A program made the translations under genes and the position numbers. From a virus (lineage: Duplodnaviria; Caudoviricetes): a DNA stretch of 64,000 nucleotides. The notes under the pieces are model-generated. The model worked only from the letters and a program-made list of their open reading frames with translations, had not been told where the DNA came from and did no database searches. Position 1 is the first letter of the stretch. Each line of letters starts with the position of its first letter. Shown piece by piece: positions 1,971-3,374 of this stretch. The DNA lies in IMG/VR virus record IMGVR_UViG_3300027255_000165, one strand, 5' to 3'.

Positions 1971-1974
1971 CATG

Positions 1975-2275
1975 AAAAATAGTAATAATGGGATTCCTGA
2001 CTACCCATACACCTTGGATCTACCCCTTTTCACCCATGGTCCAACAGAGTAGCTAGTTCTGTTGTAATGACCAGCTGGATTGCATACCAGCACCCGTTGC
2101 AAAGATCAGATAGCGTATCTTGGCGGGACCTCATTGACTACCAGGTTGCGCATTCTACCCTGTAGTTTGAGTGGTTTTATCTCATAGATCTGTGTGATCC
2201 AACATTCCTGCTTTTCAGCAGTTCAGCCAGTACCTTAAGGACTCTTAACCCCTTGTTCGGTCACATTACTATTTT
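1975..2275 (-). ncRNA. candidate ~300-nt multi-helix structured RNA, unassigned
   Basis: 11-bp closing helix AAAATAGTAAT/ATTACTATTTT and about 9 internal hairpins; no ORF; lies between two tRNAs. Confidence 0.6.
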
Positions 2276-2276
2276 G

Positions 2277-2349
2277 AGCGAAAGACCGGGTTCGAACCGG
2301 CGACCCTGACCTTGGCAAGGTCATGCTCTACCAACTGAGCTACTTTCGC
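2277..2349 (-). tRNA. trnG: tRNA-Gly(GCC), CCA not encoded
   Basis: GCGAAAGTAGCTCAG...TTGCCAA...GTTCGAACCC...CTTTCGCT. Confidence 0.95.
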
Positions 2350-2355
2350 AATTTT

Positions 2356-2450
2356 TTGGAGCTTCACCTTTTTAGCGCGCTTGCAGCATCAAGGTCCCAA
2401 CCTAAGCAGTCCGTCGACTGTGCTCTTAGGGTTTTACGTTTATCTCTCCA
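2356..2450 (-). ncRNA. candidate ~95-nt structured RNA, unassigned
   Basis: TGGAG/CTCCA closing pairs; CCTAAG-CAGTC-GACG-GACTG-CTTAGG hairpin; second hairpin CTTG/CAAG. Confidence 0.4.
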
Positions 2451-2456
2451 TTTTCT

Positions 2457-2552
2457 TGGTGGCGAGTAATTTGCGGTTACTCATTTCTACTTCTGAATGT
2501 GCTGATTAGGTTAACATCACAGCATGAATTTCATTTTCGTCTAATTACCACC
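2457..2552 (-). ncRNA. candidate 96-nt tRNA-like RNA ending in ACCA, unassigned
   Basis: Starts 1 nt after tRNA-Thr CCA; the 5' GGTGGTAATT pairs with 3' AATTACT-C-GCC, followed by ACCA. Confidence 0.5.
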
Positions 2553-2553
2553 T

Positions 2554-2629
2554 TGGAGCCTCCTGTCGGACTCGAACCAACGACCTACTGATTACAAATC
2601 AGTGGCTCTACCAACTGAGCTAAGGAGGC
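2554..2629 (-). tRNA. trnT: tRNA-Thr(UGU), CCA encoded
   Basis: GCCTCCTTAGCTCAG...TTTGTAA...GTTCGAGTCC...GGAGGCTCCA. Confidence 0.96.
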
Positions 2630-2688: not shown

Positions 2689-2853
2689 TTACTCAGCTAC
2701 TACTTCGGTAGCTTCTTCCGCAACTACTTCAGTGGTAGCTTCCTCAGAAACAACTTCCTCAACGGTAGTAGTTTCCTCAGTTACAACCTCTTCAGTGTTG
2801 TTACAAGCTACAGCGGCGAATGCCATTGCAGCTAGAAAAAGAGATTTTTTCAT
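2689..2853 (-). CDS. 54-aa acidic lipoprotein, not in ORF track
   Basis: MKKSLFLAAMAFAAVAC-NNTEEVVTEETTTVEEVVSEEATTEVVAEEATEVVAE; signal peptide II lipobox AVAC. Confidence 0.8.
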   Translation of the reverse strand: MKKSLFLAAMAFAAVACNNTEEVVTEETTTVEEVVSEEATTEVVAEEATEVVAE

Positions 2854-3360: not shown

Positions 3361-3374
3361 GTATGTTAAAGAAC
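3361..3374 (-). promoter_or_regulatory. boxA-like element GTTCTTTAACATAC
   Basis: Between class I promoter and tRNA-Arg. Confidence 0.55.

Follow-up and report, generated by a model that had tools for sequence, protein, structure and literature searches.

Positions 2457 to 2552 (minus strand) of a 64,000-nucleotide (nt) stretch of IMG/VR virus record IMGVR_UViG_3300027255_000165, hereafter the window, hold a 96-nt element within an array of transfer RNA (tRNA) genes. We found that this element belongs to a conserved RNA family that is real and well supported, and uncatalogued in a comparison that does not extend to the virus RNA catalogue of 10,006 candidates (PMC10690425). A preliminary description of the same DNA had read the element as an aminoacylatable or decoy tRNA mimic ending in a discriminator A and an encoded CCA. 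The observation behind that description was partly confirmed and its interpretation partly supported: the element is an RNA embedded in the array and not a tRNA mimic chargeable at an encoded CCA. Taken as a whole, our preferred reading is that of an uncatalogued 96-nt array RNA that would be set free by tRNA processing and would act in trans, with no encoded single-stranded ACCA and no sign of aminoacylation; we consider this likely. The family and its fold, position, copy number, and distribution are direct results, while the release by tRNA processing, the stability, and the action in trans are inferred.

The homologue search gave about 40 copies of the element, comprising 26 distinct sequences. 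Two pattern scans of IMG/VR were built on invariant unpaired segments from different parts of the RNA, and 30 of 34 loci were common to both. The window element scored 124 bits with covariance model R1 and 117 bits with covariance model R2; by covariance model, 33 more IMG/VR instances scored 85 to 126 bits, and assembly contigs added further copies. Contigs carrying homologues of a gene for a small Cys-rich protein, located 650 nt downstream of the element, gave syntenic arrays with diverged copies. The sets free of retrieval bias are only the six variants derived by synteny and the overlap of the two pattern sets. Other routes were less productive. An exact 26-mer covering P3 and the 3' end had 0 matches in IMG/VR, the pattern being overly strict; scanning a single metagenome returned near-identical copies only; and relatives of the neighboring protein P0002 gave one useful locus (loci are identified by L numbers; L002, L003, and L005 were not syntenic). 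IMG/VR loci anchored on identical halves of tRNA-Thr or tRNA-Gly contained the element only in one near-identical contig, which first suggested a lineage-specific insert; this was overturned by the 33 additional copies retrieved with the unpaired-segment patterns.

By blastn, the array matched deposited phages only through its tRNAs, and the element alone had no match in 50,697 deposited phage records. Rfam reported only the array tRNAs at gathering score and nothing relevant over the element at E values up to 10. Among 185,579 genomes of prokaryote species there was one true match, on a 2.8-kb tRNA-array contig binned with a metagenome-assembled genome (MAG) of the Schleiferiaceae (Flavobacteriales). 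This contig is most simply read as phage DNA, and it offers a weak clue to the host. A search for transfer-messenger RNA (tmRNA) in the same MAG returned only matches at the level of tRNAs, and its comparison with the element was dropped.

Each of five phage records contains the element exactly once, and 44 array loci of other phages lack it. Its carriers include phages whose large terminase is 57 to 58% identical to that of the phage studied here, and a complete 91-kb phage in which no homologue of that terminase was detected. The source of the window is a 170.6-kb IMG/VR record of a myovirus (tail sheath, portal, and large terminase), the closest cultured relatives of which, by large terminase (31 to 34% identity), are Tenacibaculum phages, Flavobacterium phages, and Sphingomonas phage PAU. 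The carriers are uncultivated marine phages, probably infecting Flavobacteriales.

The homologues agree on a three-way junction formed by a terminal helix (P1), a long interrupted arm (P1b, P2a, and P2b), and a hairpin (P3). In the window the parts are as follows.
2457-2552, minus strand: the 96-nt element, a member of the conserved RNA family; element position p is window coordinate 2553 minus p
2547-2552, minus strand: P1 5' strand, nt 1-6 (GGUGGU), paired with nt 90-95
2458-2463, minus strand: P1 3' strand, nt 90-95 (GCCACC), including the CC of the claimed ACCA
2457, minus strand: nt 96, the unpaired, discriminator-like base after P1
2530-2540, minus strand: 5' side of the long arm, with P1b (nt 13-14), the purine-rich internal loop GAAAA (nt 15-19), and P2a (nt 20-23)
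2520-2524, minus strand: P2b 5' strand, nt 29-33 (UGCUG)
2500-2504, minus strand: P2b 3' strand, nt 49-53 (CAGCA)
2505-2519, minus strand: L2, the 15-nt apical loop, centered on the self-complementary hexamer GUUAAC
2483-2497, minus strand: 3' side of the long arm, with P2a (nt 56-59), GAA, and P1b (nt 63-64), followed by the junction AGAAAU (nt 65-70)
2464-2482, minus strand: P3 hairpin, nt 71-77 with nt 83-89 and the loop CGCAA (nt 78-82)

Across the 26 distinct sequences, 97.4% of cells were paired and 10 of the 24 pairs showed compensatory changes (39 cells). None of 500 shuffles matched the covariation score of this alignment, and sliding the partners reduced pairing to 30 to 48%. The six synteny-derived variants gave the same result: P1, P2b, and P3 together were 97% paired, both partners had changed in six pairs, and no shuffle out of 500 was as good. 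In P1, pair 1:95 is GC in 22 sequences and AU in 2 (A1:U95 in L091 and L124), pair 2:94 is GC in 24 and AU in 2 (A2:U94 in L084 and L089), pair 3:93 is U-A in all 26, and pair 6:90 is U.G in 22 and U-A in 4. Read on the opposite strand, the conserved wobble U6.G90 would become C.A, so the fold belongs to the tRNA-sense strand. Pair 22:57 of P2a (nt 20-23 with nt 56-59) is AU in 22 sequences, GC in 2, and GU in 2. In P2b, pair 31:51 is CG in 22, UA in 3, and UG in 1, while pair 32:50 is UA in 25 and CG in 1. P3 is the most informative helix, with compensatory changes in five of its seven pairs; pair 73:87 is GC in 13 sequences and AU in 13, six pair types occur at 74:86, and the closing pair 77:83 is C.A, U-A, U.G, or G-C, leaving a CGCAA pentaloop in most members. 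L2 is 15 nt long in all members except L120, where it is 16 nt. A scan of mutual information revealed the nested helices and no pseudoknot in addition to them.

Folding the window copy of the element by itself gave the 6-bp (base pair) terminal stem GGUGGU/GCCACC, the hairpin GAGUAA-CCGCAAA-UUACUC, and the internal UGCUG/CAGCA hairpin. The latter two, which correspond to P3 and P2b, had been pointed out in the preliminary description, and both carry compensatory changes in the homologues. The description had further placed the 96-nt stretch one nt after the CCA of tRNA-Thr, and the letters are as it stated, with the element on the minus strand and an A at 2553. It then proposed a 10-bp stem that would free the ACCA. 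In the six-variant alignment that stem had 0 compensatory changes and four broken cells, in L084, whereas the rival register GGUGGU/GCCACC, which pairs the CC of ACCA, was 100% paired and included a double change from G:C to A:U; in the 26 distinct sequences this register was 98.7% paired. Nucleotide 96 is A in 10 of those sequences, U in 11, and C in 5 but never G, and the element's 3' end reads CCA, CCU, CCC, CAU, CUU, or UCU, with CCA in a minority only. The conservation of the ACCA end in homologues, on which the mimic interpretation had been staked, is thus not seen. C94 and C95 pair and covary with G2 and G1, and because they do so and nt 96 varies, the element has no encoded, single-stranded, aminoacylatable CCA.

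Nor does the element resemble a tRNA in its other parts. ARAGORN called nothing on it with introns allowed, with thresholds at 80%, or in tmRNA mode, and at 60% it gave only nonsense calls; the Rfam search for a tRNA or tmRNA identity gave no match at E values up to 10. The GTTC T-loop is absent, as had been described: the loop of P3 reads CGCAA, with the covarying pair 77:83 closing it, and is not a 7-nt GTTC(R)A T-loop. There is no D stem, since nt 7 to 28 form other helices, and P2b has 5 bp but a 15-nt loop and not the 7-nt loop of an anticodon arm. One topological likeness stands: the 3' strand of P3 continues without a gap into the 3' strand of P1, forming a stack of 12 to 13 bp like that of an acceptor stem on a T arm.

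The position, too, is tRNA-like. Every copy of the element lies on the same strand as the tRNAs, and most copies stand at the spacing found between tRNAs. At most loci it starts 1 to 4 nt after one tRNA and ends 1 to 7 nt before the next; the gaps between tRNAs in the same arrays have a mode of 3 to 5 nt, and 79 of 230 are no longer than 10 nt. In L084, where the element stands alone between tRNA-Thr and tRNA-Gly, and in L089 and L125, tRNA-Gly follows 4 nt after it. The flanking tRNAs differ by locus (Thr>Met, Thr>Gly, Thr>Ser, Leu>Met, Gly>Gly, Met>Asp, and Glu>end), and L103, L122, and L124 have no tRNA directly downstream of the element. The Thr-Gly spacer itself is very variable in related arrays, being about 20 nt, a second element only, or unrelated structured inserts. 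The neighbors in the window are as follows.
2554-2629, minus strand: tRNA-Thr(tgt), the upstream neighbor (ARAGORN and Rfam, 69.5 bits), with discriminator U and CCA
2553, minus strand: the single A between the CCA of tRNA-Thr and the element
2358-2449, minus strand: element 2, a separate structured RNA between the element and tRNA-Gly
2276-2349, minus strand: tRNA-Gly(gcc), the downstream neighbor (ARAGORN)

The window cluster consists of seven tRNA genes, all on the minus strand (ARAGORN and Rfam). Only two of the seven, Thr and Ala, have an encoded CCA, in keeping with the earlier remark that most tRNAs here lack one. The CCA after tRNA-Thr varies among relatives (CCG in L004 and CAA in L084), and in the window CCAAG stands on either side of the insert. 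The 170-kb record, which is about 70% complete, has 18 tRNAs for 18 amino acids at three sites; ARAGORN called no tRNA for Val or Trp in this incomplete record. The window differs from the genome record at 7 of 64,000 positions. Between tRNA-Ser and tRNA-Thr lies an open reading frame of 54 amino acids (2689-2853, minus strand) with a lipoprotein-type signal (…AAVAC) and an acidic tail rich in Glu, Thr, and Val; it is conserved in L004, and another sequence takes its place in a relative from run X20.

The surroundings of the element at other loci had features of their own. In L087, L095, and L121 the element starts directly after GTTCTTTAACATATT, a boxA-like motif, and is the first gene after that signal, 21 to 22 nt from tRNA-Leu; the corresponding motif in the window is at 3361-3374. 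In L090, L091, L105, L107, L111, and L122 a sequence ending in GAATCCTGTCCTGACTACAA lies directly 5' of the element, and in L010 it occurs after the spacer. This sequence resembles the T arm plus acceptor end of a tRNA missed by ARAGORN, maybe a long or intron-bearing one. The downstream gene in L090, L091, L105, and L107 was called "tRNA-???(tg)", with a two-base anticodon. Where the element ends the array, in L103 and L122, an AT-rich stretch common to both comes next and then a CCAUGG...CCAUGG hairpin, which may be a terminator or another RNA.

We next consider how such an RNA could work. The array seems to be transcribed in nature: contigs from RNA libraries cover it, and one of 1,594 nt with a depth of 98.8 spans tRNA-Ala to tRNA-Thr, including the element; parts of the array left uncovered by RNA contigs carry no evidential weight. 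In runs X19, X21, and X24 the RNA contigs pass straight from tRNA-Gly to tRNA-Thr; we take them to come from relatives in which the spacer RNAs are missing (as in L008) and not to show splicing. In T4, tRNAs less than 5 nt apart are matured from one precursor by host RNase P, an enzyme that also cleaves non-tRNA substrates (PMC11143913). In our proposal, the element would be transcribed together with the array tRNAs; trimming of the 3' end of the upstream tRNA (tRNA-Thr in the window) would create its 5' end, and the RNase P cut at the downstream tRNA would free its 3' side. The released RNA would retain at most a few extra nt and be protected by its paired termini. It may well be set free as a stable RNA in this way because it is cotranscribed, has the spacing of tRNAs, and is flanked by tRNAs that host enzymes trim.

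Sequence conservation points to where a function would reside. Pairwise identity was 93.7% in unpaired columns and 86.9% in paired ones, with the P3 stem at 72%, and 33 of the 47 unpaired columns were invariant. Strong conservation of unpaired positions was also seen in the 15-nt loop, which is in neither retrieval pattern, and in the synteny-derived set; the 18-mer at nt 55 to 72 was identical in 30 of the 34 loci retrieved by the pattern that does not contain it. Because unpaired nucleotides are better conserved than the stems, an RNA acting in trans with a sequence-specific partner fits the data. The near-invariant purine-rich strands and the loops, rather than the stems, would then carry the function, and the element would act by binding that partner.

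Several observations weigh against this reading. The fold energy of the lone sequence is unremarkable (z = -1.55, with 17 of 200 shuffles as good); since it is no better than that of shuffled sequences, the lone sequence decides nothing on structure, the evidence for which is comparative only. P1b (nt 13-14 with nt 63-64) is invariant and hence beyond the reach of covariation. Part of the conservation at nt 10 to 26 and nt 55 to 72 was forced by the retrieval patterns. The discrete 96-nt species is one that we infer: the RNA contigs carry no end information, and DNA carry-over is possible. Finally, the upstream gap is 21 to 22 nt in L087, L095, and L121, 18 nt in L103, and 246 nt in L123, so the tRNA slot is not universal.

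Among the alternatives, we first weighed self-association, in which two copies would pair through the L2 hexamer as a kissing-loop homodimer or would assemble further with the array's other RNAs, in the manner of GOLLD and ROOL. Most copies have the hexamer GUUAAC, and the L096 group, L103, and L122 have GUCGAC. Both one-step intermediates are present, namely, GUUGAC in L123, which self-pairs via G.U, and GUCAAC in L121; to judge from the flanking states that copies share, GUCGAC may have arisen twice, by separate routes. U37 is changed to A or G, able to pair with U44 of the partner, and the self-duplex of the variant loops reaches -13.7 to -15.1 kcal/mol, matched by 1.7 to 3.3% of shuffles. 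The neighboring element 2 contains an invariant GCGCGC, and GOLLD and ROOL, which occur near phage tRNA islands, assemble through kissing loops (PMC12286853). However, the self-duplex of the commonest loop is weak (-5.8 kcal/mol, with 28% of shuffles as good), a 6-nt palindrome is expected by chance in about 15% of 15-nt loops by a rough estimate, and GUCAAC in L121 breaks the palindrome. The independent events are few. We regard self-association as unlikely.

A strict tRNA mimic, which is the idea of the preliminary description with CCA added after transcription in place of an encoded one, would be cut by RNase P and RNase Z, would have CCA added to nt 96 by the host enzyme, and would serve as a decoy or substrate for aminoacyl-tRNA synthetases, anticodon nucleases, or tRNA-sensing defenses. 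The element occupies a tRNA slot; P1 (6 bp) and P3 (6 to 7 bp) stack, which with the 7-nt loop of the window copy matches the dimensions of an acceptor/T minihelix; and a single unpaired discriminator-like base follows P1. Because most tRNAs of the cluster lack an encoded CCA, addition of CCA by the host is needed in this array anyway. Shape and position are nevertheless the sole positive support for this alternative. The encoded ACCA is paired and not conserved, the T-loop consensus and the D arm are absent, and the apical loop has 15 nt and not 7. There is no G3.U70 or recognizable identity set, with U-A pairing at position 3, and the Rfam models for tRNA and tmRNA, as well as relaxed ARAGORN, reject the element. 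We also found no gene for a CCA-adding enzyme or RtcB in this phage record. Mimicry in the strict sense is therefore a doubtful explanation, to which we give a small chance.

Another possibility is that the element acts in cis, as a fold that prevents misfolding of the tRNA precursor or guides RNase P or RNase E and is functionless once released. Paired termini and tRNA-like spacing agree with this, and other arrays carry unrelated structured spacers at the Thr-Gly position or none at all, so structured filler seems common and dispensable there. A mere spacer, however, would not hold 33 of 47 unpaired positions invariant across phages with differing terminases and flanking tRNAs; because the flanking tRNAs differ between loci, the element is not tied to the folding of any one tRNA. 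We consider a purely cis-acting role very unlikely.

Most improbable is a decayed tRNA gene or neutral spacer, or else a tiny messenger RNA (mRNA) or tmRNA-like RNA with the frame AUG AAA UUY NUG NNN UGA (nt 19-36): the 3' end GCCACCA resembles that of a tRNA and CCAAG flanks the insert on both sides, but strong purifying selection and a single copy per genome exclude a pseudogene, and, while the five-codon frame is kept in all 26 variants with four of seven distinct changes synonymous and an A-rich leader before the AUG, the start codon is paired in P2a, the helices explain the changes at nt 22, 31, and 32, seven substitution events are too few to test, and the element has no G3.U70, no T-loop, and no tmRNA match in Rfam or ARAGORN. 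A second frame, GAC GAA AAU ..., reminiscent of a tmRNA tag, was rejected, nearly all of its changes being nonsynonymous. Three further possible likenesses were given no weight: that of the L096-group loop to 16S rRNA helix 44, that of loop triplets to anticodons of stop codons, and that of the GAAAA/GAA internal loop to a kink turn.

The arrays hold other structured RNAs besides this element. Element 2 is an independent, widespread family with 17 distinct homologues and covarying stems (GGAG/CUCC to GGGG/CCCC to GAGAGG/CCUCUC, and ACCUU/AAGGU to UCCUU/GAGGA), in which GUCGACGG and GCGCGC are invariant. It adjoins tRNAs, for example upstream of tRNA-Arg in L046, L058, and L062, and had no match in Rfam. 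The two elements occur independently: L084 has only the first and the L034 group only the second. Between tRNA-Gly and tRNA-Ala, 180 nt downstream of the element, lies an RNA of about 300 nt (1972-2275, minus strand) with a weak match to manA (RF01745, 25.5 bits). Its homologues lie upstream of tRNA-Gly in L032, L036, L052, L056, L059, and L065. It appeared in four metatranscriptomes as short contigs with depths of 99 to 273, with adapter ends in three runs; because the contigs are short and deep and end in sequencing adapters, this manA-like RNA is an abundant, discrete RNA.

Many related arrays have another conserved motif, CACUGAGUCUAGCC, immediately 5' of tRNA-Thr, with a structured region that varies coming after the motif (about 2630-2690 of the window, minus strand). 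It also occurs in L034, L038, L041, L045, L047, L064, and L067, and in L064 it stands directly after tRNA-Ser. Unrelated structured RNAs occupy the Thr-Gly slot in L010, L011, L013, L018, and L019, where they follow tRNA-Thr, and in L037, L040, L048, L051, L053, and L066. One of them combines a stem, ACUCGCC/GGCGAGU, that covaries with ACUUACU/AGUAAGU, and an 11-bp hairpin whose loop is GUUGCAAA; a second one is a family of 150 nt. The Thr-Gly slot is a hot spot for exchangeable RNA cassettes.

An outside chance is that the element, element 2, and the manA-type RNA are co-encoded RNAs of tRNA slots, excised by the host's tRNA maturation and acting as tRNA-shaped or self-assembling particles. 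If so, a CCA-tailed decoy could soak up a tRNA-directed host defense or a translation factor, or a dimer could dock via the palindromic loop, and phage tRNA arrays would be operons for RNA-only effectors as well as aids to codon usage.

Phage tRNA arrays are usually taken as codon-supply devices, and the DNA between their tRNAs as filler. Here, a 96-nt RNA is held once per genome in the place of a tRNA across phages with differing terminases, and its drifting compensatory stems and near-fixed unpaired bases are what marks a functioning RNA that has a specific partner. The finding, unsurprising in principle, bears on the old question of what non-tRNA RNAs do in phage tRNA clusters. T4 RNA C and RNA D are unexplained after 50 years, while GOLLD, ROOL, and manA are now known to self-assemble; a small, easily synthesized, array-linked RNA is a tractable entry point. 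The covariance model also gives annotators a feature that tRNA finders and Rfam miss.

Of the known systems, T4 RNA C and RNA D (species 1 and 2) are the ones to which the preliminary description had compared the element. They are stable non-tRNA RNAs linked to the T4 tRNA genes, with no explained function (PMC9697503). The analogy holds in that the element too is a non-tRNA RNA encoded in a tRNA slot among phage tRNAs; it does not extend to sequence homology with T4 rnaC or rnaD, since blastn matched the element to no deposited phage record, and the element differs from RNA C and RNA D in size, host group, and fold, its processing being deduced. Y RNAs have a tRNA-like module and paired termini and sometimes occur in phage tRNA arrays (PMC4201824). 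With YrlA (RF02553), a partner of Ro60, the element shares small size, paired termini, and location in a tRNA array, but it has no RF02553 match at E values up to 10 and no mimic of a T-loop or D-loop. No TROVE/Ro60 gene (PF05731) was found in this record or in five other carriers, most of which are incomplete and one of which is 100% complete.

GOLLD, ROOL, and manA-type RNAs are structured phage RNAs near tRNA islands that assemble through kissing loops, into RNA-only cages in the case of GOLLD and ROOL (PMC12286853). They are ornate and 200 to 800 nt or longer, whereas the element has 96 nt and three helices. The Rfam models of GOLLD, ROOL, and manA gave no match over the element, and the sole manA signal (1978-2285) lies outside it. 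In plant mitochondria, t-elements are tRNA-like signals on non-tRNA transcripts that are cut by tRNA end-processing enzymes (PMC1920247). Together with minihelix substrates of RNase P (PMC1920247, PMC11143913), they share with the element an acceptor-like helix stacked on a hairpin. However, t-elements flank mRNAs and are cut sites only, while the element stands alone among tRNAs, is conserved in sequence, and would be cleaved only hypothetically. The tRNA-like domain of tmRNA resembles the element in that its two ends are paired, a hairpin stands next to the 3' strand, and a small reading frame lies inside; unlike tmRNA, which has G3.U70 and a GGUUCGA T-loop, the element has U3-A93 and, at 96 nt, neither that T-loop nor pseudoknots. 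The element is not a member of the tRNAs, tmRNAs, YrlA, or the ornate RNAs, and what it shares with the known systems is only their kind, that of a non-tRNA RNA matured, here presumably, alongside phage tRNAs.

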